Part shown: in pieces, positions 16,336-62,946 of the stretch
Position numbering within the stretch: the stretch's first letter is position 1
Layout: every line of letters starts with the position of its first letter
Assembly: GCA_001661245.1 (NCBI GenBank)
Contig: KV454012.1
Span: forward strand, 1,786,418 to 1,850,417
DNA length: 64,000 bases
Reading direction: 5' to 3'
From: Pachysolen tannophilus NRRL Y-2460
Taxonomy: Eukaryota
Translations under genes and position numbers: made by a program
The notes under the pieces: model-generated
Database searches by the model: none
The model's input: only the letters and a program-made list of their open reading frames with translations
Told to the model about the DNA's origin: nothing

Positions 16336-18315
16336 ATGGGTCTTTTATCATTAGGTACACCATTACATTGGAAAGATACAAGGAAACATGCTGATGAAGT
16401 TAGAGAACAAGGTATAATTCAATTGATAAAGATGTTTGAATCTGCACATGAACGTAAAAATGATAAATTTTTATGGGGGGATGAATTAGAATATATGTTA
16501 TTAAAAATTGATGAAGATTCTAAAGATGTTAAATTAGCAATCGATGAAGATTCTATTTTACAAAGACTTAGTCCTGAAGGTTGTGCATATAATAAATGTA
16601 TTGAAAATGAAATTTCATTTCATCCTGAATATGGTAGGTATATGTTAGAAGCAACACCTCTGAGACCTTATGATGGTGAAAAAATTGATGATTATCTTTT
16701 TGTTGAAAAAAATATGTCCATTAGAAGAAAAATTGCAATAAATGAATTACATGATAAAAATGTATTTCCATTTACTTTAACTGTTTATCCAAGAATGGGT
16801 ACTCCTCATTTCACTTATCCAGATGCAATTCCAAATGGTGAAGCTTCAAAATCATTATTTTTACCAGATGAAATAATAAATCGTCATGTAAGATTTCCAA
16901 CTTTAACTGCTAATATAAGACGTAGAAGAGGTGCAAAAGTTGCTATTAATGTCCCATTATATAAAGATACAAGAACAAGAAAAAATGATGAAATAGATCC
17001 AACAATTCCTAAAAGAAATTTATTCCCATTTCATGATCTGGAACCTTTCTTGGGTGCAGCATTACCTGGTCATATATATATGGATTCAATGGGTTTTGGA
17101 ATGGGTTGTTCTTGTTTACAAGTAACAATGCAAACACCAGATTTATCAGCAAATAGATATCTTTATGATTCATTGGTTTGTATTACTCCAATAATGCTTG
17201 CTTTAACTGCAGCTTCTCCAATTTTTAGAGGATTCTTGGCTGATCAAGATGTTAGATGGAATGTAATTAGTGGTTCTGTTGATGATAGAACACCTTATGA
17301 AAGAGGTGTTGAACCTTTAAAAGGTCATAATTTATATGGAGAGATAGATGTAAAAAATTCCTCACTTTATAGAATTCCAAAATCTCGTTATGATTCAGTT
17401 GATCAATATTTAGGTGATGTTGGTTCTGATGGAATAACAACAAATTTTTTTGATAAATCTTATAATGATTTAACACCAGTTAGAAACGAAAAAATTTTTA
17501 ACAAATTAACAAAAGAAGCAAAATTTGATGAAATTTTAGCTAATCATTTTGCTCATTTATTTATAAGGGATCCTATAGTGGTTTTCAGTGAAAATCTTAA
17601 ACAGGATAATGATTTTCAAACTGATCATTTTGAAAATATTCAATCAACAAATTGGCAAACTTTAAGATTTAAACCTCCAATTCAACAAGCTGTTCCGGAA
17701 AATCATAAAACTCCAGGTTGGAGAGTTGAATTTAGACCAATGGAAATTTCAATTACAGATTTTGAAAATGCAGCATATGCAATATTTGTGGTATTATTAT
17801 CTAGAAGTATTTTAAAATATAGACCTAATTTTTATTTACCTATAACATGTGTTGATAAAAATATGAAACTTGCTCATAAACGTGAAAGTGCAACAAATGG
17901 AATTTTTTATTTTAGGAAAAATATTTTATCCAAAGAAGTTAATAGTATTGCTGAATTATCATTAAATCAAATTATTAATGGTTCAAATGAATTTATTGGT
18001 TTAATACCTTTAATTGAAAAATTTTTAAATGAAGAATTATTTAAATCTGCCACTGAAGAACAACTTTTCAAAATAAGGACATATCTTAAACTTGTATCTT
18101 ATAGAGCAAGTGGTGAAATTCCAACAACTGCGAAATATATTAGAAATTTTGTGCTAAATCATCCAAATTATGCAAAAGATAGTATTGTTTCAAAAGAAAT
18201 TAATTTTGACCTTATTAAAAATTTATCAAAGTTGACACTGTATGATAAGGAAATTGTAAAAGATTTTTTTGGTAATGACATAGCAAGAGATATGGAAAAA
18301 ATGGGGTATTGTTAG
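16336..18315 (+). CDS. GSH1: Gamma-glutamylcysteine synthetase
   Basis: MGLLSLGTPL, WGDELEY, FHPEYGRYMLEATP, YMDSMGFGMGCSCLQVT, HFENIQSTNWQ, GWRVEFRPM. Confidence 0.98.
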   Translation: MGLLSLGTPLHWKDTRKHADEVREQGIIQLIKMFESAHERKNDKFLWGDELEYMLLKIDEDSKDVKLAIDEDSILQRLSPEGCAYNKCIENEISFHPEYGRYMLEATPLRPYDGEKIDDYLFVEKNMSIRRKIAINELHDKNVFPFTLTVYPRMGTPHFTYPDAIPNGEASKSLFLPDEIINRHVRFPTLTANIRRRRGAKVAINVPLYKDTRTRKNDEIDPTIPKRNLFPFHDLEPFLGAALPGHIYMDSMGFGMGCSCLQVTMQTPDLSANRYLYDSLVCITPIMLALTAASPIFRGFLADQDVRWNVISGSVDDRTPYERGVEPLKGHNLYGEIDVKNSSLYRIPKSRYDSVDQYLGDVGSDGITTNFFDKSYNDLTPVRNEKIFNKLTKEAKFDEILANHFAHLFIRDPIVVFSENLKQDNDFQTDHFENIQSTNWQTLRFKPPIQQAVPENHKTPGWRVEFRPMEISITDFENAAYAIFVVLLSRSILKYRPNFYLPITCVDKNMKLAHKRESATNGIFYFRKNILSKEVNSIAELSLNQIINGSNEFIGLIPLIEKFLNEELFKSATEEQLFKIRTYLKLVSYRASGEIPTTAKYIRNFVLNHPNYAKDSIVSKEINFDLIKNLSKLTLYDKEIVKDFFGNDIARDMEKMGYC

Positions 18316-18796
18316 TTAACAGAGGAAAGAAAATAGAGATTATCTTTTTTTTTTTTTTTTTTCTATAAAGTTTTACAAATTGAATCGATTGCCTTTAGAA
18401 ATAGATGTAAAAAGAAAAAATAAATCAAGTTTTATAAATGGGCAAAAAAAAAATTTTTATTTTTTATTAGTTGTATTTATTTGACAGTTTAAAGTCAATA
18501 AACATACTTAATAATCCATTAATTTTAACTTTGGAAAGAATCTCATTTTAAACTCTTTTTTTTTTTTTTTTGCTCTTTCGATCTTTTATCTTTTAAAAAG
18601 TAAACTTGTTATCTCTAATCTCTCTGTGACAACAACAACAATAAAATTGAAAAAAAAAAAAAAAAAAAAAAATGCAAAAAAAATATGAATTTTCTTTTTT
18701 TTTTTTTTGCCTGTTGAATTGGAATATAAGAAAACACAAACCAAATGTAAATGTAAATGTTTTAAAAAAGCTAAATATATATAAAACCCATTTTCT

Positions 18797-19363
18797 TTAT
18801 GCTGCAGCAACATTTTTCGCAATAGTACCAAAACTGCAAAAACCAAACATTATAGAAAAACACGTTGTACAAAAAGTATCTTTATTGCATACTATAAGGT
18901 TACCACAGGGGCCAAACCCAAAACAACAAAGACAACTTTTCCAAAATTCCACGCATTCTTGACTTGTTGATTGATGATAATTTTTCAATTGTTGTTGTTG
19001 TCTTTCTCGTTGTTCTCTTAATTCTTTATTTTTTATGTATAAAGGATCATCTTGAGCTCCTGGTTGTGAAGTTTGAACTTTTTCATCAATTACTCCCTTA
19101 TTCTCATTCTCATCCTCCTCATCATCATCACCATTACCATCATTTTTAGTCTCATTGCTCTTATTATTATTGCTATTAACAACTTCTTTTTCATTAGCAC
19201 TACCATCCGCAGCCTCAGAAATTTCTTCAGTAGGTTTAACCTTTAACGAAGATTTTGCATCTTGAAAATCCGTTAAAACAGTACCATCTTTTTGTTCTTC
19301 TTCACTCCCAGTCAACGTAGTATCATTTTCCGTCGGTGTAGCTATCTTGTCTATTTTCTCCAT
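18797..19363 (-). CDS. Uncharacterised 188-aa protein with acidic disordered N-part and Cys-rich hydrophobic C-tail (CYSTM-like)
   Basis: ATG in A-rich context, own intergenic space; tail ECVEFWKSCLCCFGFGPC..C..FCTTCF..FC. Confidence 0.7.
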   Translation of the reverse strand: MEKIDKIATPTENDTTLTGSEEEQKDGTVLTDFQDAKSSLKVKPTEEISEAADGSANEKEVVNSNNNKSNETKNDGNGDDDEEDENENKGVIDEKVQTSQPGAQDDPLYIKNKELREQRERQQQQLKNYHQSTSQECVEFWKSCLCCFGFGPCGNLIVCNKDTFCTTCFSIMFGFCSFGTIAKNVAAA

Positions 19364-20285
19364 TTTAATTATTCAAATCAATTGTTATTAAATAATACTC
19401 CCATAAAAAAAAACCAAAAAAAAATCTTTTTTTTTATTTATATTTACTTTTTTTTGTTCTATATTTTCCAAGTAATCTTTAATCTTTAATCTATAAACAA
19501 TTTATTCATATCCTTTTTCCTTTATTTTTTTTTCTTTAAACCTGAGAAAGCAAAAAGCAAATTTAAAAAATAAAAAATAGGAAAAAAAAAAAAATATTTA
19601 TTTATTATATATTTTCGTAATAGATTTAAGAATGGTAAAAGACAAGTTACAGAATTGTTTATATTTTAAACGGCAGGAACACTCATACACCGAATAAAAG
19701 AGGTTTTCTATGGGGTAAATTTCTATCTTTTTTTTACGTAAGGGGTACGCGGAAATACTCCTTTTCTTCTTGGGCAGAAAAAAAGTTTTGGTTTAGGTAT
19801 GTCTCTCTCTTTTTCTTTAGTCCTAGATCTATATAGGCGGGCACTGAACATTTAGACATTTGAACAATAGATATTGGACATTGGGCAGTGGGCTATGAGG
19901 TCAAAAGTTAAAAATCACAAGCCAAAAATCCGAGTTGGTTTTTAGCGATGAGGTCATATAGAAGGAAAGAAAAGAAACAAAGTAGTGTACGTTTGAACTA
20001 GAATGGGACGTTATTGGTATTGGGTATTGTGAACACTACTCTCTTTTTTTCAATATCCGACAAAGTAAACCGACGGAGAAATTGAACTTTCCGAAACCGG
20101 GGTTTTTTTATTCATTTTTTTTTTAATTCACAAACACACACTACCTTTTTAAATAATTTCCCTTTTTGGATTATTGGGCTTTATATACACTACTTTGATG
20201 TTTTTTCAATTTTATTTTTTTTTTTCCTTTTTTTTTTTTTTTTTTTTTGCTGCTCTGCTTCTACTCTGCTAAGAAAAAGAAAAAA

Positions 20286-20295
20286 AAAATTTTCA
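20286..20295 (-). promoter_or_regulatory. RRPE element (TGAAAATTTT) of LSG1; a PAC motif GCGATGAG lies at 19945-19952
   Basis: Consensus matches upstream of a ribosome-biogenesis gene. Confidence 0.6.
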
Positions 20296-20467
20296 CGTAA
20301 TAATAACATACATATTGTGTATACTATAAGTGAATAAGTAAGTTAATAAGTGAATAAGTGAATAAGTGATATTAGTAATTAGGTACTCTTTTTTTTTTTG
20401 CTTTTTCGAGTTAGATAGAGGACATCTATAATTCACTTTTTTTTATTAAAAACTTTTTTCTTTCATT

Positions 20468-22423
20468 ATGCCACCAAAGAAAGAGGAACCGAAGAAATGG
20501 AAAGCTCCAAAAGGTCCAAAGCCAATTCAGAGAAAGAATAAAAATACTATTGGATTAGGAAGAAGTATTGCTAATGTTAGATCAAAGGAAAATAGAATTG
20601 AATATCTTCCTGATGGGGAGATGAGGTTTACTACAGATAAGCATGAAGCTGATTGGGTGAAGTTAAGGTCTGTTACACAAGAAACTGCATTGGATGAATT
20701 TTTAAATACTGCAGAATTAGCTGATACAGATTTTGCTGCTGAAAAGAGAGCAACAGTTAAAATTATTAAAGTTGATCCAAATAAAAATCCATATTTATTA
20801 AGTGGTGAAGAACAAGAAAAAAAACATAAGTTACAAGAAGAGCATGAATTTGAATTGAAAGTGCCTAGAAGGCCAATATGGGATTCAAATACAACAAAAT
20901 TTCAATTAGAAAAACTGGAAAAAGAAGCTTTCTTAGATTGGAGACGTCAACTTGCTTTATTACAAGAAAATGAAGATTTATTATTAACACCTTTTGAAAG
21001 AAATATTGAAGTTTGGAAACAATTATGGAGAGTGGTGGAAAGATCTGATCTTGTGGTTCAAATTGTTGATGCTAGAAATCCATTATTATTTAGATCAAAA
21101 GATTTAGAAAAATATGTAAAAGAATTAGATGAAAGAAAAAATAATTTATTATTGGTAAATAAAGCTGATTTACTTACTCTGAAACAAAGATTAGCATGGG
21201 CAAATTATTTTATTGAAAATAAGATAAAATATACTTTTTTCTCTGCAGCAGAAGCTAATGAATTATTAGCAAAGGAAGAATTGGAATCACAATCATTAAA
21301 TGGAAATTTAAATGAAATAAATAATAGTACAAATACTAAAATTGAAATTGGAAATGAAATATTTAATAAAGAAAAATCAGAAATTGATTCTAAAATCAAA
21401 ATTTTGAAAATTGAAGAATTGGAAGAATTATTTTTAAAAGAAGCTCCAGAGCCATTGACTATTCCATTAAGACTGGATGAACCTGCAAAATTACAAATTG
21501 GATTAGTTGGGTATCCAAACGTTGGGAAATCATCAACTATAAATGCTTTAGTAGGTGCAAAGAAAGTTTCAGTTTCTTCAACCCCAGGTAAGACAAAACA
21601 TTTTCAAACTATTCAACTTTCTCCAAAAGTTATTCTTTGTGATTGTCCAGGTTTAGTTTTCCCCAACTTTGCATATACAAATAGTGAGTTAGTTTGTTGT
21701 GGTGTCTTACCAATCGATCAATTAAGAGAATCTACAGGACCATGTCAATTGGTGGCTCAACGTATACCAAAATATTTCTTAGAAGCTGTTTATGGTATTG
21801 CTATTCCAACAAAAGCTATAGAAGAAGGAGGTTCTGGAATACCAACAGCACAAGAATTATTAACCGCTTATGCTAGAGCTAGAGGTTATATGACACAAGG
21901 TTTTGGTAGTGCTGATGAATCAAGAGCAGCAAGATATATTTTAAAAGATTACGTTAATGGTAAATTATTATTTACACATTGTCCACCTAATAATGATAAT
22001 TCTTTAGTAACTTTGGAACAAGAAAGAGAATTTAATATGGAAAATTTTAGTCTTGAAAAATTACCAGAACAACGTATAGAACAAATTATACAAGCTGCAA
22101 AAGAGAAAAATATAAACATTAATGAAATTGATCTTGCAAGAGATTTATCCAAATTAACTTTTTCGTCTCATGCGTCAATTGGTGATGAGGGGAAAGCTAA
22201 GACATCATCAAATTATGGTGGTAAACAAGCTGCTTTAACAAGTGCTACTGATGAATTGGATAGAGAATTTTTCAATATGAAAAATGTTAAAGGAAAATAT
22301 ACTACTCCATTCCATAAATTAACAAATGATGCTAATTCCAATAAAAAACATAATAAAAAAAACAAAAAGGGGAAAACTAGAACTCTAACAAGTGCAGCTA
22401 CAGTACAAGACGAATTGATCTAG
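20468..22423 (+). CDS. LSG1: Circularly permuted GTPase for 60S maturation
   Basis: LTPFERNIEVWKQLWRVVERSDLVVQIVDARNP, NKAD, GLVGYPNVGKSSTIN, TPGKTKHFQT, DCPGLVFP. Confidence 0.97.
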   Translation: MPPKKEEPKKWKAPKGPKPIQRKNKNTIGLGRSIANVRSKENRIEYLPDGEMRFTTDKHEADWVKLRSVTQETALDEFLNTAELADTDFAAEKRATVKIIKVDPNKNPYLLSGEEQEKKHKLQEEHEFELKVPRRPIWDSNTTKFQLEKLEKEAFLDWRRQLALLQENEDLLLTPFERNIEVWKQLWRVVERSDLVVQIVDARNPLLFRSKDLEKYVKELDERKNNLLLVNKADLLTLKQRLAWANYFIENKIKYTFFSAAEANELLAKEELESQSLNGNLNEINNSTNTKIEIGNEIFNKEKSEIDSKIKILKIEELEELFLKEAPEPLTIPLRLDEPAKLQIGLVGYPNVGKSSTINALVGAKKVSVSSTPGKTKHFQTIQLSPKVILCDCPGLVFPNFAYTNSELVCCGVLPIDQLRESTGPCQLVAQRIPKYFLEAVYGIAIPTKAIEEGGSGIPTAQELLTAYARARGYMTQGFGSADESRAARYILKDYVNGKLLFTHCPPNNDNSLVTLEQEREFNMENFSLEKLPEQRIEQIIQAAKEKNININEIDLARDLSKLTFSSHASIGDEGKAKTSSNYGGKQAALTSATDELDREFFNMKNVKGKYTTPFHKLTNDANSNKKHNKKNKKGKTRTLTSAATVQDELI

Positions 22424-22545
22424 AAATTTGGATTTTTACTTTAAATATGTATTTTATACATTTTATACCTATATATTATCAAGTAAAGTAATACAATACC
22501 CTACTATCTATCATTCGCAATAATACTACGAAATCTATATTTGAT

Positions 22546-22552
22546 TTACCCG
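22546..22552 (+). promoter_or_regulatory. Reb1 site TTACCCG, probable snoRNA promoter element
   Basis: Exact consensus followed by A/T tracts about 135 bp upstream of the snoRNA. Confidence 0.6.
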
Positions 22553-22683
22553 GGCACAAAAGGTGAAAAAACCAAAAAAGAAAAAAAAAAAAATTTTTGG
22601 TGAAAAATCAAATCTATTTAAATTTGAGGAAAGTATTTCATTTTCTCTTCTTTTTTTTTTTTTTTTCCTTTCTCTATCTTCAA

Positions 22684-22853
22684 CTAGGCATCTTAAATAA
22701 AACTTTTAATAATATCGATTTGTTTTTAGTAAATCCAGAGAACTTTATATAAGTTCTTGTTGATGCCGAGATGGACAATTTATCGCCTCTTTCGCTAACC
22801 ACGATCATTTTATTACAGTAGGTCGTTGTTTGATAGTAGGTGGGCGAACATAT
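22684..22853 (+). ncRNA. SNR82: Box H/ACA snoRNA, snR82-like (25S rRNA pseudouridylation guide)
   Basis: Two hairpins (ggcatc...gatgcc; tcgcc...ggcga) ending in ACA-tat. Pocket strands TTTCGCTA (22790-22797) and GATAGTAGGT (22832-22841) complement LSU rRNA AUCUACUAUCUAGCGAAA. Lies between LSG1 and USE1. The 5' end is approximate. Confidence 0.82.
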
Positions 22854-23101
22854 AAAAAAAAAGAAAATACATAAAAATTTTACTTTACATCTTATATTAC
22901 TTTTACTCACTCTATCTGATGAATGATATTTTCCAATTCTTTATTCTCTAATTCTTAAATGGTGTAGATTTCTTAAAAAAATCAGGTTCTAAGTCTGATT
23001 TCTTAGGAACCGTAATAGTAGTGCTTTATTTTTCTAAAATACGTGTATTTACCATGTACATAATATATATATATAAATTATAATTGAAAAGATACACGCA
23101 C

Positions 23102-23953
23102 ATGGAGATGGTTAATAATCCAGTTACCAATTGTGAAATGTCATCATATCAAGAATTGTATCAAATAGCCATAAACCTCAATCAGCAGCTAGCTTCTGAG
23201 ATAGTTGAGCTTAATGAAGAAGATGAAAATAGCGATTCTGTTGCTTTTTTAAATACATTAAAATTGAAAAAATTAGAAAAAGTATCTGATTTTATAAGAC
23301 AGCGGTTAATAGAAATTGAAGTTTCTACAAATAAAAATAATTCCAATGGGAATGATTTGCAAAAAATTTTACATGATATAACTAAGACTATAAATTTTGA
23401 AACTTTTAGAAATGGGCAAATTTTAGAAGAAACAAGAATAGAATATGAAAAAGAATTACAAAAAACTAAAAATATAGAAGATGGTATACTGAATGAATTG
23501 CTGGATTCTCTGAATAATTCAGAAGTTCAGATAATGGCTGGTTTCGACAATAATGGTAATCGCCAACAACATGCGAATGAAGATGTGTCGGAGTTACGTA
23601 AAAGATTACTTTCAACTAGAACAACGCAATTTGATACTGATCCAAAGACATATGATGAAAAATTACAATATCATGAAGAACAACAAACAGATATATTGAA
23701 CGAGCTATCATCGATGGTAGGAGCTATTAAAAACGGTGTTTATAAACTTTCGGATTTGATTGAAGAAGACAAGGACGTTTTAAAGAAAACAAGTTCAAAT
23801 TTAGAAGATTCATCTTCAAGGATGGGTACTATGTATAACAAGTTGAAAGAGTACCACGAAAAAGATCGTCTAGGATATTGGTATTATATAAAATTAGTCT
23901 TGGGAATAGTAGTGGCCTTTGTAGTTATCTTATTTGTGATATCTGTGCTATAG
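23102..23953 (+). CDS. USE1: ER SNARE (tail-anchored)
   Basis: ELRKRLL, Qc-SNARE helix HEEQQTDILNELSSMVGAIK..DKDVL, C-terminal TM segment; follows LSG1 as in S. cerevisiae. The start could be 23102, 23108 or 23138. Confidence 0.82.
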   Translation: MEMVNNPVTNCEMSSYQELYQIAINLNQQLASEIVELNEEDENSDSVAFLNTLKLKKLEKVSDFIRQRLIEIEVSTNKNNSNGNDLQKILHDITKTINFETFRNGQILEETRIEYEKELQKTKNIEDGILNELLDSLNNSEVQIMAGFDNNGNRQQHANEDVSELRKRLLSTRTTQFDTDPKTYDEKLQYHEEQQTDILNELSSMVGAIKNGVYKLSDLIEEDKDVLKKTSSNLEDSSSRMGTMYNKLKEYHEKDRLGYWYYIKLVLGIVVAFVVILFVISVL

Positions 23954-24790
23954 AAACTTTTTTAATAACAAATGCTATTTATATTTTATTATTATTATTA
24001 TTATTAGTAGTAGTAGTAGTAGTAGTAGTTACGGGAAACATCTCACACCAGTGCAAACTACATCTTACACCATTAATTGAAACGTCCTGCACCAAATATT
24101 AAGGCATCCCACACCATTGGATCTGCTTGCTATCTTCCCTACGTCACCCCGGGTTTCTAACCTTTTAAAAGAAAGAACCCTTAAATTCATGCCAGTCAAA
24201 ATCTAACAATAATATAGTGAATGCAGTAGAAGTTGCAGTAGAAGTTGCAGCGAAAAGTTGCAGTGATTTGCATAGTGTGATGGACTAAGTTAAGTTGTTC
24301 TACTTGTTTCTAACCAATTCGATTTATTTTGATTTGCTCTTTACTGCAGAGTAACATATATCAGAGCAAAGAAACTAAAATAAAATTAAAATGTTAATAA
24401 TAATAGAAAAAAGATTTCCATTAGGTGATAACTTCTGCTTCAAGATGTTGAAAGGCGGAAAAAAAAGAAAAGAAAAGAAAAGGGTTTCAACATTCTCAAA
24501 TAGAGATCTATATAATTTCATTTTGTCTTTGCCTGTTGAAGGAACATACCACAACAGGTAAGTTCGATTTAAGTGTATAAAAAATTCAACAGAACACTCA
24601 TTAATCTTGGGTATTGGCTTTTAACTATTTTTCAATCTTCTCAATCTTTTACCCGTTACCGTTTACCGTGGCTATGTGTATATATTCCACAGTCTCCACC
24701 TCCCACAACAGTTTATAAAAATTTCTACTGGAAATAGCGGGTTATTATTATTATTATTATTATTATTAAAGGTAAAGAATAAGAATAGAA

Positions 24791-25014
24791 AGGGGGAAAT
24801 CTTAACTATCTATTGTGGTTGCAATTTTTATTATGGCGAATTTTTTAACGTAATCGGATTTCTCAAAAAGCAAATCGGAATATGAAAATTTTCCAAAAAC
24901 TAGTTTAGTCTCAGGAACCAGCCAACCAAATTCAAATTAAGTAGCCCCTCAGAAATTACTTCTCCTTCTTTTAATTAAAGAAAAACAACTGCTGACTAAC
25001 AATTTAGTACCCCT
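24791..25014. promoter_or_regulatory. Three STRE-like sites (AGGGG 24791; CCCCT 24945 and 25010) upstream of DDR48; TATA box at about 25156
   Basis: Motifs are rare in this AT-rich DNA and precede a stress gene. Confidence 0.5.
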
Positions 25015-25301
25015 GATATTTACCACATAATTTCTAAATTATTTTCCTTTGAAAATAGTATCAAAATATTAACTTTGAAAAATTTAGGAATCTTCAAGTA
25101 TGCACTAATATGCAAAGACGACTAAAATGGGAAACGTGATTGCTAGAAGTAATCATATAAATAGAATCATGATCTTCTTATTAGATCCAGTTCTTTCTTT
25201 CCTGTTGTAAAGTTAAGACTGTATTTGCTATCTCATTTACAAATCTTTTCAATTCAATTCAATTCAATTCAATTCAAATTTCAAATTTTCAAAATTTCAA
25301 G

Positions 25302-25940
25302 ATGGGTTTATTCGATAAAGTTAAAGAAAACTTGAATCAAGACACTTTAAACAAAATTGGTGAAAAGATCCAGAGTCAGACTTCTAATTCGAGTTCAAAT
25401 AATCAAGATTCTTATGGTTCATCTAACTCCGACTCCTATGGTTCATCTAACTCCGATTCATATGGTTCGTCAAACTCCAATTCCTATGGTTCATCAAATT
25501 CCGACTCATATGGTAAAGGAGGTAACAGCAACTCTTATAATTCCAATGATTCTTATGGATCATCCAGAAACGACAATACTTATGGTGGTGGTAATGACAA
25601 TTATGGTTCCTCGAATTCCAACTCTTACGGGGGTAATGACTCTTATGGTAGTAGCAACAGAGGTAACAGTAATTCCTATGGAGGTAGTGACTCATATGGC
25701 AGTAATAACAGAGACAATAATGACTCTTACGGAGGTGGCGACTCATATGGTAGTAGCAACAGAGGTAACAGCAACTCCTATGGAGGTAGCGACTCATATG
25801 GTAGTAATAACAGAGACAATAATGATTCTTACGGAGGTGGTGACTCATATGGTAGCAATAATAGAGGCAATAGCAACTCATATGGAGGTGGCGACTCATA
25901 TGGAGAAGGTAGAGGCGGCCGTGGCGGCTCAGACTGGTAA
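25302..25940 (+). CDS. DDR48: Stress protein with DSYG repeats
   Basis: N-terminus MGLFDKVK and S/N-x-DSYG repeats characteristic of Ddr48. Confidence 0.9.
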   Translation: MGLFDKVKENLNQDTLNKIGEKIQSQTSNSSSNNQDSYGSSNSDSYGSSNSDSYGSSNSNSYGSSNSDSYGKGGNSNSYNSNDSYGSSRNDNTYGGGNDNYGSSNSNSYGGNDSYGSSNRGNSNSYGGSDSYGSNNRDNNDSYGGGDSYGSSNRGNSNSYGGSDSYGSNNRDNNDSYGGGDSYGSNNRGNSNSYGGGDSYGEGRGGRGGSDW

Positions 25941-26359
25941 GGTGTGCTAGATTTTAGATATAGTAATAGTATTCTTCGTAAAATTTTCAAGAGATGTTCC
26001 ATTTCTTCCTATTTTTTTTTTTTTTTCTTACTATCTTTTTTAGTTTTCAGTGAGGATAAAAGTGATGTGGCTGTAGCTGCTACTAACAGTTATATCACCG
26101 TACCAAATTACCAAACTCTAATTAGATTTATATTATAAATAAATGAGATAAATGATGGTGTTTCTCATTTCAAAGATTCACTTACAGTCTATGTGCCAAT
26201 CTGCAAACAGAAAGGTCATAAACGTCACCCTGCATTGAAATAAAATTAATATCGACACTTAAATTTACACAATATAAAATATATAACAAGTAGAAAAAAA
26301 AAAACTCCATAAAAATTCATACTTTTCTTTTTTTTTTCTTTTCATTTAAGACTCAAAAA

Positions 26360-32153: not shown

Positions 32154-32191
<38 letters not shown>

Positions 32192-50799: not shown

Positions 50800-51404
50800 T
50801 GCATTATCAAAAAAAAAAATAAAAATTTTTTTCTTTTTTTCTTTCTTTTGCTTCTCCTGTCATGTAATACTAAATAAAATATAGTTGTAACTATGTAATC
50901 TTGAAAGATAAAAAAAAAATAGAAAAAGAAACTATAGATAATTGATTAATTGCCTTAATATTCGAATGTAACATTTTGCCATTTCAATCTTTAGAATTGG
51001 AGAGGATATCATTAGCACTGAGCCGCATGCAAAATTTTACTTTTGGCTCGTAACTTAAAACTTAATTTGAAAAATGAGTTTATTACTCAATACTGTGTCG
51101 CAATAATTCAAAGTTAAGTCGTATTTATTAAAATTATTAACAGAAAAGAAAAGTATTTTACAAAATTACAAGAAACAAGTTGTTAATGAAAACTGAAAAA
51201 AAAAGAGAAAAGAATGTATATGAAAGTTGAATAAGTATAAACAAAGGAAAAAAAAGCAAAAAGAAAAGAGAGAAAAAAGTAAACTAAACATTCAAATCTA
51301 AAACTCCTAATTACAACTTAACAGTATCAAGAAAACGAAAACAAGAAAAAAACCCATATAACTACATTCTCTACCCTCTGAAACCATTTTTTTTTTTTTT
51401 GCAT

Positions 51405-52430: not shown

Positions 52431-53704
52431 TTCAACTATCAAGCAAAAAAAAAAGCCATAAATTTTTAAAATTTAAACGGTACTAATGAATTTACCCCTA
52501 ATATGTCTCTGGTGAATGGTTAAAAACGTATGAACCGTCTATCTGAAAAATTCAGAGGTAACTGGAATGAAATTCCAGCAAAAGATTCAAAGTACCAATA
52601 GAAATATTTGAGAAAAAATGGTGTACACATAGAAGAAGGATTTTAATTTTAATTTATACGGAAATCTGGTATTAAATAGAACAAAAGTATAGTCCCCGAA
52701 AAAAAAAAAAAAATAGGGTATAAACTCTTAGGTTCTGCATTGCTAAATGCAGGGTAAAGGGGTCTAATTTAGCTTCAAAAATTGTTCTTATGCATCCGGT
52801 AATCCAATAATTTTTTCAATCATGCAGGTATAACAGGCGAATACTAGTAAGATCAAGCATTGCAACGTATGGAAAACAAGTAGTTTACTATTCCATGATA
52901 GAACGGTAAAATCAGTTTAAAAAAAAAGATTAATACTAATCACGCATTTAATAATGGTGTAATTGGGTGAACGCCGTGTGATTCTTGGTTAAAGAAAAAT
53001 GGGGATGACTAGGACTTAATGAAGAACCATTATGTTGATTGATGCTTTATCTGTTGTTTGAGAAATTAAGACATATATATAACAATTATAAAATCAAGGC
53101 AATAGAAACAAAAATTATATAAGCGGAGCAGCACCTGCCATTTTAAATTAAAGAAATTATAAATCATCGGAATTATATCAATGAAAAATACATAACAAAC
53201 TTTATATTGCTAGAATAGAAAAGTGATGTTTGGAATTGCTTTTTTAATATTCAAAACTGTTTTATAAGAAGATTATTTTGTTTGGATATAGGATCATCAA
53301 TGCTCAATTACAATTTATTTACAATGGAGTGTTTTTTTTTTTTTTTTAATTTTTTAAAGTTTTTAATATAAAGTCAGTTTAATATATTTATTTGTAAATA
53401 TTAATTACTTTTGTAGCTTGATAGCCAATTGATATTTTTAATCACGTTTTAGGAAGCTCTTAGAAAAGGATTTTATTATTTATTCCATATTAGATTTAGA
53501 TTAAATTTTAATTTGATTCAGTTGGATTTTTCCGCTCATTTTGAAAAACTGGAAAACGGAAAAATGGGCAAAAAGAACTTTCTATATATTACTAAAAATA
53601 CTATAAAATTAAAATACATTTCGGGGTTCTATAAATATCTATCGAAACTCAAAGATTATATATATATAATTTAAAGTATTTTTTTGATCTATCTATGATT
53701 GATA

Positions 53705-54394
53705 TTAATTTTTTAATGAAGTTTCAACATATTCGATTATTTTAGAAATTATTGGTTTTTTATTTGGAACAAAATGACCACCTTCATGTTCAATTGTCTT
53801 TTTAATATTTTCGGGATAATAACTCAGTAATAGCAACGATCTTTCTTTTGGAACATGAGTATCTGAAGAACCATATACATGTATAGTTAAAGTTTCCAAA
53901 TCATTAGGAACTTTGAACAAATGAGCATATTTTTCTTTCAAGACCAGACTTTCATCTGTTGTAGTAAACAGATATGCAGAAAATAAAATGGAAAATTTAA
54001 ATTGTTGATGTCCTGGAACTAAAGTTGAAATATTATTTGTTACTATAGCTGCTAAAGCTGCACCTTGGCTAAAACCAAGAATTCCATCAAATGGACCTTC
54101 TTTTAAAATACATTCTTTAACAGCTGTAAGAGCATTTTCAATATTTAAATCTTCAACATGATACCACCATGCTCTATTAATCCCAGAATCAACAATCTCC
54201 TTCCATTTGTTTTCATCATCAATTTCAAATGGTAAATCTTTCTTCTCTAAAATTGTTGGTCCATCCAAAAAAAAAGTCTCGGCGTTTATTTTTTTCAAAG
54301 CTTTCCTAATACCTGATGCTTTTTCATAAAAAATTTTGGAATTTTGTAAAAAACCATGCAAACATAAAACTTTCAATGGTCTAGATAAACTCAT
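53705..54394 (-). CDS. FSH/OVCA2-family serine hydrolase
   Basis: LCLHGFLQN, RAWW, GPFDGILGFSQGA, HEGGHFVP. Confidence 0.92.
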   Translation of the reverse strand: MSLSRPLKVLCLHGFLQNSKIFYEKASGIRKALKKINAETFFLDGPTILEKKDLPFEIDDENKWKEIVDSGINRAWWYHVEDLNIENALTAVKECILKEGPFDGILGFSQGAALAAIVTNNISTLVPGHQQFKFSILFSAYLFTTTDESLVLKEKYAHLFKVPNDLETLTIHVYGSSDTHVPKERSLLLLSYYPENIKKTIEHEGGHFVPNKKPIISKIIEYVETSLKN

Positions 54395-54578
54395 CTTATC
54401 AATCTACTAGCTTCTTCTATATTTCAACAACTAACAACAATTCAAAATAATATATATATATATATATCACACAATATTTCAATACTTTCAAAATTGGACA
54501 TAAATATTTCTCAATTACAGTCGTTTGCCTTACTTCAAATATCACTATACAGGAAATGTAATCGATGTATGGAGTTGC

Positions 54579-54584
54579 ACGCGT
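54579..54584. promoter_or_regulatory. MCB element ACGCGT upstream of RIF1
   Basis: Exact MluI box about 225 bp before the first ATG of a replication-timing gene. Confidence 0.55.
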
Positions 54585-54807
54585 TTTTTTTTTTTTGACT
54601 TATTTTTCTTTTAGGAGAACCAAATGTACCAATAAGTTATGTTTAATTGATTGGCGTCAATTGGGAAACTTGCCATTAGTTTAATCATCTTGGAAGGTCT
54701 TTATCGTTGAAAGATTGGGAACAGTTTTCCGTATTTTTTTTATTGTAATTTTTGGTATTTTCTTTGGGTGGTTTTTTTTTTTTTCATTCTTTTTTTTTTC
54801 ACAAGAT

Positions 54808-57800
54808 ATGATGGACCATAAACACGGTCATCGATTAGAAATAGATATGCCAGTGACGCTGAAAACGACGAGATCGGGATCAAGATCAAAATCAAGATTA
54901 AGATCAAGAAAGGGAAGGTTTCCCGCTGTGGGTAATAGGATGAGTGCTTCATGCTTAAGTTCTAGAGGGTCATTGTTGATTAGAGATAACGAGAACAAAG
55001 AGTCCGTGATATCTGATGATATTGAGGAGTTATCGATCAAGGAGTTTAAGGCCAATAGTAATATCAGAACAGGTGGCAGGTCAAGAGAATGTTGGTATTT
55101 TGATGTGGATTCTCCAGAAGATCGGGAAAGTCTTTTAAGTAATTTAGGGATTGGGTCGTTTTTTTCTGAGCCTTTAGTATCACCTTCATCTCCTAAATCA
55201 TCATTAGGCTCAAAAGTATTTCAATATCAAAAGAAGAGGCTCAATATTGGATCTGGGCCGCAACGATATGTAGAGATGGGAAATTTTTTACAAACGAAAA
55301 ATTTGAAAAGACGATGTGGTGGAATTTTACATGAAAATACTCATCAGAAATTGAATAATCATAGCGAAAAAATTCTGTTTACTGAAAAGATAATTGATAA
55401 AATAGAAAACAAAAATTTTGAATTGAATTCAGAAATACGTTTGGATGAAGGTGATAACCAGATTTTACCGTTAGATTTGGCTGGTTATAATAAAGATACT
55501 AAGATCTCCGAGGGGAATATACACTTGATAGATAATAATTTCAATTTCGAAAATAAAGAAAACGTTAATGGATCAGATTCTGATGGTGACGATCGATCCC
55601 TATATTCTAATTCAAGAATTTCGACTCCATCAGACTCTCAGCGAAACACTCCAATTAAGTCGGTAACAACATCATTACAAAATCCAGAATTATGCGACGC
55701 TTCAGCAGCTTCTCCTTTAAGCTCAAGAAAGAGAAAAAGAGCACTAGATACAATATTTTACGATGTTTTTGAACCTCGAAAAACTAAACCTTTACCTACT
55801 ACTGCTACTACTACTACTACCACTATCACACCTAATTTTGGCATATTGAACAAAAAATCTGATAATACGTTGAATGAAAAAGAGATCCCAGACTCCAATA
55901 TTAAGGAACTCGAAAACGAACTCGTCGTACAAGAGGAGAACTTTGAAAATAAACAGATTGAAAAGGAAACTTTGGCACCAACTAGTGATATCAAAGAAAC
56001 GGAATCGGGGAAAACTACTGTAACTGAAATAATTACGCATAACATTGACATTCCAGAATCTAATGAACAGCAAAAATATCTGATATTACCACTTCCGAAG
56101 TTAATACAAAAATCACCAAAGCTTCCAGTAATACAAGAAACTGAGATCCAAAACCATAGAACTAAAGAATACAAACAGAAAGATTTTCCACATGATGAAT
56201 TTTCATTGTTATCATCTCCAATTGAAAAAGAAGTTAATCACAAAAATAAAGAAATTTTGGCTGCATCCCAACATACTGAAATACCCAAATCAGTTCTTCC
56301 CACCGGAAAAAGTACCGTTACTTCATTATCAAAAGAGTCAACACCTTTGAAGAAGAAAGTAGCATTTTCAGATGATATCGAGACGTCAGAATTGCAAGTA
56401 CAATCTTCACCGCTCAAAGGTTCTACTCCTTTGAAGTCTATTTTGAAAAATGATAAAAATCCTTCATTTTCTTCTCCTTTGAAAAAAGAACATAAACAAC
56501 TCACCAATAAATTACTTTTGGAGCCTCCCCACTGGAGTAAAGGTTTTATACTTCTGTTAGAAGCAAAAAATGAAGAAGAAATTTCAATTTTGATCAACCG
56601 AACTGTAAGTGCTTTAGGTGATGAGAAATTTGATCTTAAATTTGAAGTTTATGCTTCTTTGAACAATCTAATTAAGATCAATGATGTCGCTGTTTCCGTC
56701 CCAGCCTTTGCCAGGTGTTCTAAAGAGTTATTACGTTACATTGTAAGAGATATTTATGAATGTGAAAATGATCTTCTTTCAGAAGGTTTGAATAACCCTT
56801 TTGTTACGAGAATTGATACACAGGCAATAAAACTTTTGAATTATCTTTTCTCCTATCAAGAAATTAATAAAACATTTGTGGTACTGACCTGCCAACACTT
56901 GATTTTTCATGCTTGTCAAATGTTACAGAATGAGTCCATTCCAAAAAGTCTTGCCAAGCAGTATTTACAATTAATTGGTCAACACAATTTAAGTCCAAAA
57001 ATTATAAGTCCAAAAACAAGTGAAACCTTATTGTTTGCTGTGTTGAGAATGAAATATTTTGAAAGTGCTTCGATTGTCATTGAAAAATTGAGTACGTTGA
57101 AAAACTTGATCAGTTCTTATCCTTCTATGATGTCCAAAAATCTTAAAAGTTGGTTTGGATTTTTAGTGATTAACTTAACTGATTTTCATCCCTCTTTACA
57201 TATACAAATTATCAATGCTACCACCATAGTGCTAAAGGAATTTTCCAGTAGATATTCAGGTGATAGGAAAGTGCAATATGCAGTTCATCTGTTTTTACAT
57301 CAGCCATTATCAGATGTTCTATCAAATTTACCATCTCAATTCAAAACCCAGGTAGACAGGGAAATGTCTTCTTTGTCGGCGGAAAGCTTGTCATCACATT
57401 ATCTAGCAATTGACTATATTTCTGAAAAGCTCACAGCTCTATTAGAAAATGACGAAGGTGAAAGTGTGATGAATATTTGGTCTTCACTAACTTTAGTGAT
57501 GAATATTTCAAATGAACGTGATATTGAAAATTGGGAGAAATTAAGTTCCTGGACTGATATTAATAAAAAGTGTTTCAATAAACATAGTTCTGCATCAAAA
57601 GTATTTGCGGTTAAGGCTTGGAAGAATATGATCTATACTTCTTGTTCAGATTTGAATTTATTTTCTCCACTCCGTTCATCGTTTCCTCCTATTAAAAGAT
57701 TTAGCCTATTGTTATCTCCTTTTCACTGGGCTAGTATGATTTTGCCTTTAGATCAAGAACTTGCAGATGCTTTAGAAGAATTATTTTTGAATTTTTGCTA

Positions 57801-60564
57801 TATTGTTATCAATCCCGTATTCACAAATACCAAAATAACATCATCTTATGCGGAGCAGTGTTGGATACAATTAATCAATCCAGTTTTGGTGGACCTCTGT
57901 TTTAAGAAAAATGCTTTGCCAAGTCTTGCAAAATTTGGATCACAACTTTTAACAAACCTCTTTAGCATAAGGTATCCGATAAAGCAGCACAATTATAATC
58001 AACTTAGGTGTTTGTCAAACAAAAAAGTTAAACTTTTTGAAGTCAATTCTCTTCTTCCTAAATGGGTTCACAGTCTGTTTGAGTCAATAAATATTACAGT
58101 TACTTATGCTTTTAGGTCTCCAAAGATTACAAGTTTCGAAAAGTTAAACTTATTTTCTTGTTATATCAAGTCTTTGCAGCAAATTATTCAAAGAGAACCA
58201 AAACCATCGAAGGCAACTACTGACATTATTTTTTCAATGAAAACTTTATATTTGGAATTTTTGCAAAACACTGATTCCTCCATCAAAATTAGGTACCTTA
58301 CGGAGTTGTTAAATAACATGGGAAAGATTTTTGGAATTTCATTTTTATTTGGGAACAAAAGAAATGACACAAACTTGTATAAGAGTACAATTGTAAAACT
58401 TTTATCGCAAAATGTTCTTGAAGTTCAATTAGCAGAATTGTGTAATTCCATTATACAAGGTTTAAGTCCAGAATTAAAGCTTTCATTTTTTAATGATTTG
58501 TTATCTTTGGATCGTGAAGTTTTAACGCGCATTGTTTGTGAGGATTTGAACCAAAATTTGTTTTTGAAGAATCTGAACCTTGATTACAAAGCTTTAGGCT
58601 ATATTTTTTCAGTTGTACCGGGAAAGTTTATAAAACCCGAAACAATTTCAGATATGCTAAATCATATCAAGACATCACTGAAGGACAAGAATTTTTTTTA
58701 TTCTATAAGATCATTAATTAATGTGGGGTGGGATGATTCTATGTTTAATTATGCAATAGAAATTTTGTATTCTTTCAAGAATTCTGAATTGAGTAGCTCA
58801 AAGAAAAGGTCCTTTTCGCTGTTATTTTCATCTATTTTGAAGGCTCGTTTTGTTGCGGTCGACAAGAAGTCTTCTTTGAGTTTATTGAGTTTATTAGTCA
58901 GGCTAAACGAAAAAGAAGAATTAGTTGTTTTTAAAAATAAAGCCATCGGTTTATTTCAAAATGCAATTGGTACTAATGATTCAATTGAAGCATCTTCAGT
59001 ATATGCTTCCATATTAAAACTATTCAAATCAAATGAGGATTATCTGAGTTTGCAACTTTATGTTACTCCTGTTATCAATACTGAATTAGAGAAAGTGGTC
59101 GAGGAACTAGGATTGTTTCAAGATAAAGAACTTTATACAGGAGCATCTAGAAATTCAATTGTATCGAAAACAATGACTCTAGAAACTGCCCCATTATCCG
59201 AAACTCCGGTAATGGCTATTGATATTACTAACCAGGCAAATTTGATTCCCGCAAAGAATAATTTTGTTAAACAGAATTTTAACTGTGAATCAGCTAAGGC
59301 GGTTGAGGAAAATTTCCAAAAAACTAATTGTGAAGAAGTTTCTTCGGCTGACAATATCGAAGCTCCAGTTGCCAAAATCGTCCAGGAATCATTAAACGAG
59401 AGGAACGAGAAACATATTGGAGTTTTAGTAAAAAACGTTGGATATTCGAAAAAAATTTGTGACATATCGACACCACATCCAATAGAGGTAAAAGATGAAT
59501 ACCATGATAGCCGCTCACAAAAAACTTTTGAAAAGATTCAAAAGGATGACAATGATAATAGCAAATCACAAGAGCAACAAATTGTGGTTGTTAATAAAGT
59601 TTCACTGGTTGAGAATACATCTCAAGAAGGAGAAACAGACCAATTTAATTCTTCCAACAATATCTCACAAACATTTGATAACGATAATACTTCTGTTGGT
59701 AAAAAGAGGATGCTTGATAACTCTGGCGTACTTTTGAACACGAGAAATTACAAAAAGGGAAAAGTGAATGAACCGAATGAGATATTGACTGATAATTCAT
59801 TGTCAAGTGTGGTCATACTGAAACCAGGTTCTTTTGAATGCATTCTCCCCGCTTTTTCTTCGTCTTCAGGATATCCTTCTCCCGAGTTTGACAATGAAGA
59901 TGCAGCGACAAGCGATAAGTCATCACTTCAAAAATCATCTTCCGAGTCTGATACAAGTCGTTCTGTATCTTTTTCGAGTTTCGTGGTTAAATCTAATTCA
60001 ACAAAGAGAATGAGTTTTTCTGAAAAAGCAGATAACGATGTAGGTCTTGTTGTTAATGTCTCTAATCGATCACAAGAAACTGCTGTTATAGAAGAACTAG
60101 TCGAAATGAATAACACGGCAGAACGGTCTAGCACTCTTATGATCAAGCAAAACAGTTCTCAGGAGGACGAGGATATTTCATTCAGACTGGATCAAAAAAT
60201 AGACCAACAGGAAGATGCTACCAATAGCAATGCAGTTGTCTCCATTCACTCAAGGCAATTGATTCCAACAAGTTCTAATGCGAATCAATTGACACGAACA
60301 AATTGCGACAATCATAACTTAGATAGATTATCGAATCAAGTGGTTCTCAGCAACAATGAAAATAACAAACAATTTGGTAACATGTTCGATTTAAACAGAT
60401 GGGGACCTTTGCAGCAAATGGGCTCACGGGGTAAATTAATATCAATAGGGCGTTTACTAGGTGAAGTAGAGTCACATCAACTTCGTGCATTATCGAATGA
60501 TGAAAAAAATGGGTTGGAAAATGAATTATTAAAATTAATCATGAAATTAAGAGGTATGAACTAA
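54808..60564 (+). CDS. RIF1: Rif1 (telomere/replication-timing PP1 regulator)
   Basis: KKVAFSD and SILK PP1 motifs followed by a HEAT-like region (FEVYASLN, TRIDTQAIKLL), a disordered linker and a C-terminal LS.DEK..LENELLKLIMKL helix. Start uncertain. Confidence 0.85.
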   Translation: MMDHKHGHRLEIDMPVTLKTTRSGSRSKSRLRSRKGRFPAVGNRMSASCLSSRGSLLIRDNENKESVISDDIEELSIKEFKANSNIRTGGRSRECWYFDVDSPEDRESLLSNLGIGSFFSEPLVSPSSPKSSLGSKVFQYQKKRLNIGSGPQRYVEMGNFLQTKNLKRRCGGILHENTHQKLNNHSEKILFTEKIIDKIENKNFELNSEIRLDEGDNQILPLDLAGYNKDTKISEGNIHLIDNNFNFENKENVNGSDSDGDDRSLYSNSRISTPSDSQRNTPIKSVTTSLQNPELCDASAASPLSSRKRKRALDTIFYDVFEPRKTKPLPTTATTTTTTITPNFGILNKKSDNTLNEKEIPDSNIKELENELVVQEENFENKQIEKETLAPTSDIKETESGKTTVTEIITHNIDIPESNEQQKYLILPLPKLIQKSPKLPVIQETEIQNHRTKEYKQKDFPHDEFSLLSSPIEKEVNHKNKEILAASQHTEIPKSVLPTGKSTVTSLSKESTPLKKKVAFSDDIETSELQVQSSPLKGSTPLKSILKNDKNPSFSSPLKKEHKQLTNKLLLEPPHWSKGFILLLEAKNEEEISILINRTVSALGDEKFDLKFEVYASLNNLIKINDVAVSVPAFARCSKELLRYIVRDIYECENDLLSEGLNNPFVTRIDTQAIKLLNYLFSYQEINKTFVVLTCQHLIFHACQMLQNESIPKSLAKQYLQLIGQHNLSPKIISPKTSETLLFAVLRMKYFESASIVIEKLSTLKNLISSYPSMMSKNLKSWFGFLVINLTDFHPSLHIQIINATTIVLKEFSSRYSGDRKVQYAVHLFLHQPLSDVLSNLPSQFKTQVDREMSSLSAESLSSHYLAIDYISEKLTALLENDEGESVMNIWSSLTLVMNISNERDIENWEKLSSWTDINKKCFNKHSSASKVFAVKAWKNMIYTSCSDLNLFSPLRSSFPPIKRFSLLLSPFHWASMILPLDQELADALEELFLNFCYIVINPVFTNTKITSSYAEQCWIQLINPVLVDLCFKKNALPSLAKFGSQLLTNLFSIRYPIKQHNYNQLRCLSNKKVKLFEVNSLLPKWVHSLFESINITVTYAFRSPKITSFEKLNLFSCYIKSLQQIIQREPKPSKATTDIIFSMKTLYLEFLQNTDSSIKIRYLTELLNNMGKIFGISFLFGNKRNDTNLYKSTIVKLLSQNVLEVQLAELCNSIIQGLSPELKLSFFNDLLSLDREVLTRIVCEDLNQNLFLKNLNLDYKALGYIFSVVPGKFIKPETISDMLNHIKTSLKDKNFFYSIRSLINVGWDDSMFNYAIEILYSFKNSELSSSKKRSFSLLFSSILKARFVAVDKKSSLSLLSLLVRLNEKEELVVFKNKAIGLFQNAIGTNDSIEASSVYASILKLFKSNEDYLSLQLYVTPVINTELEKVVEELGLFQDKELYTGASRNSIVSKTMTLETAPLSETPVMAIDITNQANLIPAKNNFVKQNFNCESAKAVEENFQKTNCEEVSSADNIEAPVAKIVQESLNERNEKHIGVLVKNVGYSKKICDISTPHPIEVKDEYHDSRSQKTFEKIQKDDNDNSKSQEQQIVVVNKVSLVENTSQEGETDQFNSSNNISQTFDNDNTSVGKKRMLDNSGVLLNTRNYKKGKVNEPNEILTDNSLSSVVILKPGSFECILPAFSSSSGYPSPEFDNEDAATSDKSSLQKSSSESDTSRSVSFSSFVVKSNSTKRMSFSEKADNDVGLVVNVSNRSQETAVIEELVEMNNTAERSSTLMIKQNSSQEDEDISFRLDQKIDQQEDATNSNAVVSIHSRQLIPTSSNANQLTRTNCDNHNLDRLSNQVVLSNNENNKQFGNMFDLNRWGPLQQMGSRGKLISIGRLLGEVESHQLRALSNDEKNGLENELLKLIMKLRGMN

Positions 60565-60681
60565 GTTCTTTTTTTACCTCTTTTTCCTTTGTATCATAGT
60601 TTATAAAATTTTTTTACTTCATCTTAATAATATTTTCTTGCATTGTCTTGTATTTGTATTTGTAGAAATAAATATTTTTTT

Positions 60682-61395
60682 TCAAATCATATTTAAATTT
60701 AATAGACTAACTAGTAATCCTACACCTATTTTAACGGTATCTACAAATATTACACCTTCAAATATATTACAAAACTTCTTATCCAAGCCACTCAAGCCAG
60801 CACAACCAAGCAATATGATTTTAACCCCTTTTTCGTTTACTAAATAGCTAACTTTATTTTGCAATTCTTCAAACTTTTCAGGATCTTTCAATTCCAAGAC
60901 ATTAATATTACTAGCCAAAGTCGGTTCGACAAAACTAGGTAATAACAGCATATTGTCATTATCTGAATTGAATTCTTTGCCATAGAAAAATTTGTGTAAT
61001 GATTCATTCAAAAGTTTTTCCCATTCGTTATTGGACGTCAAAATTGCAAACTTGTGAGTTGGTGTATAGGCTAAAGCATACATGATACTTGCCAGAAAGA
61101 TTCCCAATACGGGCTTTGAGGTCAACTCACGTAGTTTATAAATAAGTGGATGATCTGAATAGCATGCAATAAGGAAACCATCATATTCATCAATTTGTGA
61201 TTCTAGTTCAGGAAGACAGCTATTTGTTGAAATAAGAGAAGTTTCCAAATCTGAAATCTCTGGAGGTGATGATGCAGGCCCTGTATAATACTCAATCTTA
61301 TACAATGATGTAAACGATAACTCTTTGACCAATGGTTTCAAATTATCTGTCATTACTTTCGATGAATTGGGATTAATTATCAATATTGACTTCAT
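60682..61395 (-). CDS. DCG1: Asp/Glu/hydantoin racemase-family protein
   Basis: ILIINPNSS..MT, YDGFLIACYSDHPL, IILLGCAGLSGL with two catalytic Cys. Confidence 0.88.
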   Translation of the reverse strand: MKSILIINPNSSKVMTDNLKPLVKELSFTSLYKIEYYTGPASSPPEISDLETSLISTNSCLPELESQIDEYDGFLIACYSDHPLIYKLRELTSKPVLGIFLASIMYALAYTPTHKFAILTSNNEWEKLLNESLHKFFYGKEFNSDNDNMLLLPSFVEPTLASNINVLELKDPEKFEELQNKVSYLVNEKGVKIILLGCAGLSGLDKKFCNIFEGVIFVDTVKIGVGLLVSLLNLNMI

Positions 61396-61609
61396 CCTCT
61401 CAACTATTATTACTTGACTATGCTTTGAAGATAAAAATGTATATATATTTGTATTATAAGATGATAAATAATTATGTACGATTTTTTCCTTATCTTTTTG
61501 ATTTCAACTAGTATTGTGGACATATTGAAAAAAAAGATAAAAAAAAATTTTCTTTTTAATATTAATCGACGGGAAATACAAACTGTGATCTCCAACCCTG
61601 GGCTTCTTA

Positions 61610-62602
61610 ATGGTAATTAAAACCAGGATATCACAGCTTGTTCAATTGCGGATGGTTAGAAATCAAAAATTGTTTTATGCGGTAAAGATTGGTCTGAAAC
61701 CTGGGGTTTATGAATCGTGGGACGAATGTTCAAAATATGTAAAAGGTTATCCTAATGCTGTTTATAAGAAATTTAAGACATTATCGGAAGCAAGAAATTT
61801 TATGGATATTCGAGTTAATGATAAGGATAAGGCTTGTGATATTTATCGAAAATTCAATTTAACAAGTGGGGAAAAAAGAACCACTTCTATTTCTGAAACA
61901 TCAAATATAGACAAGACTAAATCTGATAAAGATACTTATATTAATAAAAATATTGAATTAAATTCAAGTGAAGAGCAAAAAAATGAGGAATCTGAACATG
62001 AAATATACATTGATGGGGCTGCTAGGAATAATGGATCAAAGAAGGCATTAGCTGGGTATGGTGTATTTTTTGGTGACGGTGATGAGAGAAATGTTGGTTT
62101 GCCCGTTAAGGGACCTTTCCAAACGAATCAAAGGGCTGAATTATTAGCAGCACAACATGCTATAACATCAATTTATAAAGAGTTGAAATTAAATAATATG
62201 GTGCCCGTAATAAGGTATAAACTTAAAACAGATTCTCATTACGTTTTGAACTGTTTAACAAAATGGTATAAATCTTGGGAACAAAACAACTGGCAAATAA
62301 CTAGATACAACCAGCACAACCATTTGAAAACAAAGAATACGAGATTCCATCATCATATCAATCTGAAATCATCCTCCTCATCAACACTTGGAGTTGAAAC
62401 CATTAATTCTAAGAAAGAAGTTATGCATAAAGATATAATAAAACCTACTGTTGAGATGCTCAAGATAATAAATGGGGTTTACAAACAGAGAAACTGGGGG
62501 GATTTGAAAATTGAATACGTCAAACTGCACTGTGGAATCTTTGGGAACGAGATGGCTGATAACTTAGCAAACCAAGGAGTTGATAGACAAAGTTATCTAT
62601 AG
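61610..62602 (+). CDS. RNH1: Ribonuclease H1 (hybrid-binding domain plus RNase H domain)
   Basis: FYAVK.G..PGVY.SWDEC..VKGY..AVYKKF, IYIDGA..NG, QTNQRAEL, TDS.Y, VK(CTG)HCG..GNEMAD.LA. Confidence 0.95.
   Translation: MVIKTRISQLVQLRMVRNQKLFYAVKIGLKPGVYESWDECSKYVKGYPNAVYKKFKTLSEARNFMDIRVNDKDKACDIYRKFNLTSGEKRTTSISETSNIDKTKSDKDTYINKNIELNSSEEQKNEESEHEIYIDGAARNNGSKKALAGYGVFFGDGDERNVGLPVKGPFQTNQRAELLAAQHAITSIYKELKLNNMVPVIRYKLKTDSHYVLNCLTKWYKSWEQNNWQITRYNQHNHLKTKNTRFHHHINLKSSSSSTLGVETINSKKEVMHKDIIKPTVEMLKIINGVYKQRNWGDLKIEYVKLHCGIFGNEMADNLANQGVDRQSYL

Positions 62603-62915: not shown

Positions 62916-62938
<23 letters not shown>

Positions 62939-62946
<8 letters not shown>

Follow-up and report, generated by a model that had tools for sequence, protein, structure and literature searches.

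The codon CUG, leucine in the standard code, has been reassigned in several groups of yeasts. In Pachysolen it is read as alanine, a change that was published in 2016 (PMC4937558) and widened to a clade in 2018 (PMC5951914). Of the 907 CUG positions with full support from liquid chromatography and tandem mass spectrometry (LC-MS/MS) in the 2016 report, 97.2% carried alanine; the report also describes a tRNA(CAG) that carries G3:U70 and A73, and counts 16,824 CUG codons in 5288 predicted proteins, with 80% of genes affected (PMC4937558). The clade is reported to include Nakazawaea and Peterozyma and to be separated from the Leu2 clade by "a deep division" (PMC5951914). As the order Alaninales, which also stands in the NCBI taxonomy, it has CUG = Ala as part of its published diagnosis (PMC11182611). 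Other described systems involve serine, namely CUG-Ser1 (genetic code table 12; Candida, Serinales) and CUG-Ser2 or stochastic Ser/Leu decoding (Ascoidea, Saccharomycopsis; Ascoideales). In reassigned clades, CUG codons are described as tending toward poorly aligned regions (PMC5951914). Here we consider how CTG is read in a 64,000-nucleotide stretch of yeast DNA (contig KV454012.1 of assembly GCA_001661245.1, positions 1,786,418 to 1,850,417 of the forward strand). This whole stretch is called the window below, and all coordinates are counted from its first letter. An initial annotation, made from the sequence alone, had proposed that CUG encodes alanine in it. We regard it as very probable that the window belongs to a yeast of the CUG-Ala clade (Alaninales: Pachysolen, Nakazawaea, Peterozyma), in which nuclear CUG is translated as alanine by a tRNA-Ala with its anticodon mutated to CAG (table 26).

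The window is AT-rich (GC content 0.21-0.33 across 4-kb sub-windows) and holds 27 non-overlapping open reading frames (ORFs) of at least 150 amino acids, with functions typical of budding yeast. Over positions 1..64000 these ORFs contain 88 in-frame CTG codons, 0.60% of 14,697, spread over 21 of the 27. No difference was found between the window and the Pachysolen code or the Alaninales: the deposited translations carry alanine, the lineage is sister to the Pichiales, CTG is rare and lies at poorly conserved sites, and both its frequency and the share of genes that contain it resemble the published figures. CUG-Ser1 is alike in the codon that is reassigned, in its capture by a tRNA whose anticodon has mutated to CAG (predicted for the window) and in the avoidance of conserved leucine positions by CTG; the amino acid and the clade differ, the window falls outside three Serinales and no CTG column is rich in serine. 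With CUG-Ser2 and the stochastic Ser/Leu system the window shares an AT-rich genome and rare CTG at non-conserved sites, but it does not group with Saccharomycopsis and its public records use alanine.

Public protein records provide the first line of evidence. For Lsg1 (20468-22423, + strand), Gsh1 (16336-18315, +) and Pic2/Mir1, a mitochondrial phosphate carrier (30687-31721, -), the records differ from the standard-code translation at CTG codons only, and at eight of eight such codons they carry alanine; the table-26 translation of Lsg1 is identical to the stored record P0001. Exact look-ups of six further pairs of translations retrieved the table-26 version for two proteins, Fsh1 (53705-54394, -) and Vps45 (32669..34537, -), with NCBI and UniRef as sources, and the table-1 version for none. 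Public records of these five proteins thus give alanine at 13 of 13 CTG codons. Four other genes, those of RNase H1 (61610-62602, +), a racemase (60682-61395, -), Trm734 (41119-44367, -) and a PPZ-type phosphatase (47128-48915, -), gave no exact match when the first-ATG ORF was translated with either table 26 or table 1; their deposited models probably have other start codons or introns. Since the public records equal the table-26 translation, the genome has already been annotated with CUG = Ala.

Phylogenetic placement provides the second. Lsg1 and Gsh1 were concatenated, the CTG codons of the window being masked as X, and a tree was built for 15 rows comprising 13 named species, the window and its closest relative. 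The window and this relative form a pair with full support in the approximate likelihood-ratio test (SH-aLRT 100). Together they are sister to five named Pichiales (SH-aLRT 98), outside three Serinales and apart from Saccharomycopsis. It is beside the Pichiales that the Ala clade, too, has been placed in the literature (PMC5951914); the tree holds no named Alaninales sequence as a positive control.

The closest relative among the matches listed in protein collections is only 67-76% identical, which would suit an isolated lineage such as Pachysolen; that genus is the most likely one, as a guess. The relative is itself informative. At four near-invariant alanine columns (for example, Ala 118, Leu 1, Ser 1), its Lsg1 (P0002) and Gsh1 (P0122) are alone, or almost alone, in having leucine. 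In this it resembles the Lsg1 record of Ascoidea rubescens, which shows the same exception at two near-invariant alanine columns. Judged from these alignments, the exceptional leucines are probably CTG codons mistranslated with the standard table, which would make it likely that CTG is reassigned in the window's closest relative too.

The third line of evidence is the behaviour of CTG sites in deep alignments. Homologue searches with Lsg1, Gsh1 and Pic2 listed 120 proteins each, of which 119 were aligned after removal of the window's own record; for Pan2, the first 100 of 150 listed representatives were aligned. Calibration used columns in which the window residue comes from any codon other than CTG; there were 2410 of these in the four alignments, none with gaps above 30%. 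Eight CTG sites were scored. Leucine makes up at least 50% of the column at one of these eight, compared with 65% of the 245 other Leu-codon sites, and its mean frequency is 0.15 at CTG columns against 0.64 at the other Leu-codon columns. The hydrophobic fraction follows the same course (0.23 against 0.87). Summed over the eight CTG sites, the Ala-minus-Leu score is +2.9, whereas sets of eight true Leu sites score -17.1 +/- 3.2, and none of 5000 resamples reached +2.9. CTG columns are also poorly conserved, with a mean top-residue frequency of 0.47 against 0.58-0.72 in the other classes. Over these eight sites, the tabulation of CTG columns against orthologues that the initial annotation had proposed is dominated neither by leucine nor by serine, but the columns are unlike those of ordinary Ala sites as well.

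The scored columns illustrate how varied these positions are. Lsg1-336 (21473, +) has Pro 74, Glu 17, Asn 14 and Ala 6; Gsh1-235 (17038, +) has Lys 35, Glu 14, Ser 13 and Ala 10; Gsh1-635 (18238, +) has Asn 37, Asp 27 and Glu 26; and Pic2-49 (31577, -) has 30 gaps, Pro 27, Lys 11 and Ala 11. The remaining four are among the sites cited in the initial annotation and are taken up below.

Several results count against the alanine assignment and have to be weighed with it. The alanine of the deposited records reflects the assumption of the annotators and is no independent measurement, and the tree takes P0002 and P0122 to be proteins of one organism, which is an assumption. The deep set comprised 11 CTG sites, three of which were excluded, so that the eight scored sites come from only three proteins; the three excluded, Pan2-291, -474 and -720, have 61-71% gaps in their columns, above the limit of 60%. 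Ordinary Ala sites score +17.4 +/- 3.3, and 5000 of 5000 resamples lie above the CTG value of +2.9. Alanine reaches at least 50% of the column at only one of the eight CTG sites, Pic2-176, and the 62 columns that are 80% or more alanine include no CTG codon; Lys, Gln, Asn, Glu, Ser and His each outscore alanine when summed over the eight sites, where its mean frequency is 0.14. The window data alone reject ordinary leucine, yet they cannot name the amino acid.

The six CTG codons on which the initial annotation relied belong to the same side of the balance. All six are in frame at the coordinates and in the peptide contexts that had been quoted for them, and each had been said to stand where homologues have alanine (or, in RNase H1, alanine or glycine). 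For Gsh1 codon 109 (16660..16662, +) this was correct as far as Saccharomyces cerevisiae Gsh1 is concerned, which has alanine there in a PDB alignment inspected by eye, but among the 119 yeast homologues the column is mostly leucine (Leu 81, Ala 22). At Lsg1 codons 150 (20915..20917, +) and 238 (21179..21181, +) human LSG1 does have alanine, as stated, while S. cerevisiae has glutamine and lysine (again by eye); the columns of 119 homologues read Gln 57, Leu 25, Met 14, Lys 10, Arg 6 and Ala 2 at the former, and Arg 54, Pro 18, Tyr 15, Leu 9, Lys 9 and Ala 0 at the latter. Pic2/Mir1 codon 176 (31194..31196, -) is the sole clearly alanine-type column, and here the stated residue is borne out by 119 phosphate-carrier homologues (Ala 73, Phe 17, Leu 16, Met 9, Gly 4). 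All of these share the flanking D, L, C, P and E, and serine does not occur at the site. PDB comparators for Pic2-176 were dropped, as they were distant carriers only, with isoleucine or methionine at the site, and the homologue search was used in their place. Codon 190 of the Fsh1-type serine hydrolase (53825..53827, -) faces tyrosine in S. cerevisiae Fsh1 (1ycd, by eye), contrary to the alanine stated for it, and RNase H1 codon 306 (62525..62527, +) faces glycine in human RNase H1 (by eye), so that it agrees through the glycine of the stated pair only.

Alanine is thus the commonest residue at one of the four cited sites examined in deep alignments. Over the first six CTG sites tested in this way, alanine and leucine scored equally (-4.29 and -4.30). 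Taken alone, the six cited sites, chosen from 88, show no excess of alanine over chance. The evidence first offered is much weaker than had been claimed, and the six sites are insufficient by themselves. A few CTG sites chosen by hand are not enough to name the amino acid in the CUG-Ala clade, because its CUG codons avoid conserved columns.

Another 13 CTG sites were set by eye against homologues in the PDB. The residues opposite are Ala and Leu at two sites each, Ile at one, Gly and Glu at two each, and Arg, Ser, Tyr and Asn (or Arg) at one each. Outside this comparison lie RNase H1-252 and PPZ-92, which were unaligned, Trm734-1041, and the roughly 60 CTG codons of proteins that evolve fast or have no assignment (Rif1, Spc7, Tco89, Pbp1 and others). 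One of the two alanines faces codon 123 of a phosphoserine phosphatase (CTG at 11106..11108, -; gene 10542-11474) and is that of mycobacterial SerB, where five alignments are variants of a single independent comparator; the other faces racemase-150 in a weak alignment. The Vps45 codons 164 and 521 stand opposite glycine and glutamate of Chaetomium Vps45. Leucine in S. cerevisiae at Fsh1-150 and Trm734-80 adds to the points that weigh against alanine. RNase H1 codon 29 (61694-61696, +), in the N-terminal hybrid-binding domain, corresponds to arginine in both the human and the S. cerevisiae protein (FYAV-R/K-x-G-R). The arginine codon CGG is one step from CTG, and this codon would place alanine at an otherwise conserved basic position.

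In spite of these points, the proposal that CUG is alanine, in a member of the Pachysolen clade, agrees with the public records, with the position in the tree and with the unlike-leucine behaviour of CTG sites; it is the public records and the tree, rather than the six cited sites, that decide it. Among the other ways of reading the codon, serine, as in CUG-Ser1 (Serinales) or CUG-Ser2 (Ascoideales), fares best and is still very improbable. It has a precedent: an analysis of 2014, which reports Pachysolen to be without CUG at conserved Leu or Ser positions and to have no CUG positions in common with other species, assigned it a serine code from alignments (PMC4986446). In our columns, too, serine scores slightly above alanine (Ala minus Ser over the eight sites is -0.67), and Fsh1-142 is opposite a serine in S. 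cerevisiae. True Ser sites behave otherwise, however. Sets of them score -5.1 +/- 1.6, and just 0.8% of 5000 resamples reach -0.67; serine attains at least 50% in none of the eight CTG columns, and whereas true Ser sites have a mean serine frequency of 0.41, these columns have 0.02. In the tree, moreover, the window groups neither with the three Serinales nor with Saccharomycopsis, the public records show alanine, and Pic2-176, with alanine in 73 of 119 homologues, has serine in none.

That the standard code holds, with CTG as leucine and the cited sites as ordinary variable positions chosen by eye, is extremely improbable. The choice of six sites from 88, the 81 leucines in 119 at Gsh1-109, the leucines opposite Trm734-80 and Fsh1-150, and a mean leucine frequency at CTG columns (0.15) no lower than that of alanine (0.14) all speak for it. 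Against it stand the sharp difference between the CTG sites and the 245 other Leu-codon sites of the same proteins, which no resample bridged, and public records without leucine at CTG. Ambiguous decoding, for instance as alanine with some leucine after the manner of the Ser/Leu mixture described in Ascoidea asiatica, would account for Leu-like columns (Gsh1-109, Trm734-80, Fsh1-150) beside Ala-like ones (Pic2-176, phosphoserine phosphatase-123), but it too deserves hardly any credence, as the measured alanine in Pachysolen, quoted above, comes with deviations reported to be no commoner than at AUG (PMC4937558), and mixed columns are also expected if CTG arose by single changes from Leu codons at alanine-tolerant sites.

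With alanine as the preferred reading, the mechanism would be that described for the clade: a tRNA-Ala with its anticodon mutated to CAG would have captured CUG, which would then be read as alanine. By analogy with the literature, this genome would be expected to encode a tRNA-Ala(CAG) with G3:U70 and A73, and its peptides to carry alanine at CUG. ARAGORN found no tRNA gene within the 64-kb window, and no Rfam family had a match within it.

The remaining features of the window are briefly described here. Genes that could be named are Gsh1, Lsg1, Pic2/Mir1, Vps45, Pan2, Trm734, the PPZ-type phosphatase, Fsh1, RNase H1, Rif1, Spc7, Tco89 and Pbp1, among others. In Pan2 (36810-39737, -), residue 1 of the first-ATG ORF matches approximately residue 60-140 of most homologues; to judge by this offset, translation may really begin farther upstream, or the ORF model may lack an N-terminal exon. 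Four ORFs of 188-536 amino acids have no Pfam match at E <= 1e-5 (97-1707, +; 18797-19363, -; 25302-25940, +; 63426-63998, +), and two of the four contain CTG codons (four and three), in keeping with a published comment that orphan genes commonly contain CUG codons (PMC5951914). Among sequencing runs, five entries from two studies contain this stretch, and no RNA run is listed among them. A run of 480 Ns at 13776-14255 is an assembly gap and lies inside the most AT-rich part of the window (GC 0.21, 12001-16000).

The distribution of present-day CTG codons may also bear on how they came about. After the reassignment, CTG codons would have arisen anew by point mutation at alanine-tolerant sites. 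Since CTG cannot be reached from any GCN codon in a single step, a new CTG always puts alanine in place of Leu, Val, Met, Pro, Gln or Arg, and a later origin than the reassignment fits the way in which CTG is scattered over variable columns. At the eight CTG columns, a small sample from three proteins, these six residues, whose codons are one base from CTG, account for 0.49 of what the relatives carry. At GCN-Ala columns of like conservation they make up 0.22, and 3 of 10,000 resamples reach 0.49; at all GCN-Ala columns they make up 0.32, and 325 of 10,000 do. We lean slightly towards the view that the CTG codons carry a measurable footprint of their origin, having been created by point mutation after the reassignment and not inherited.

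The reassignment itself is already known and has already been applied to this genome, so that nothing scientifically new is claimed for it. For the window, table 26 is required, because the standard-table translations are, as the initial annotation had stated, wrong at each CTG, with 88 positions affected across 21 of the 27 ORFs. There is a methodological lesson as well, since alignment evidence of the kind on which that annotation drew misled the published analysis of 2014 (PMC4986446). If the footprint of codon origin were to hold genome-wide, it would offer a quantitative test, site by site, of the model in which an unassigned codon is captured.

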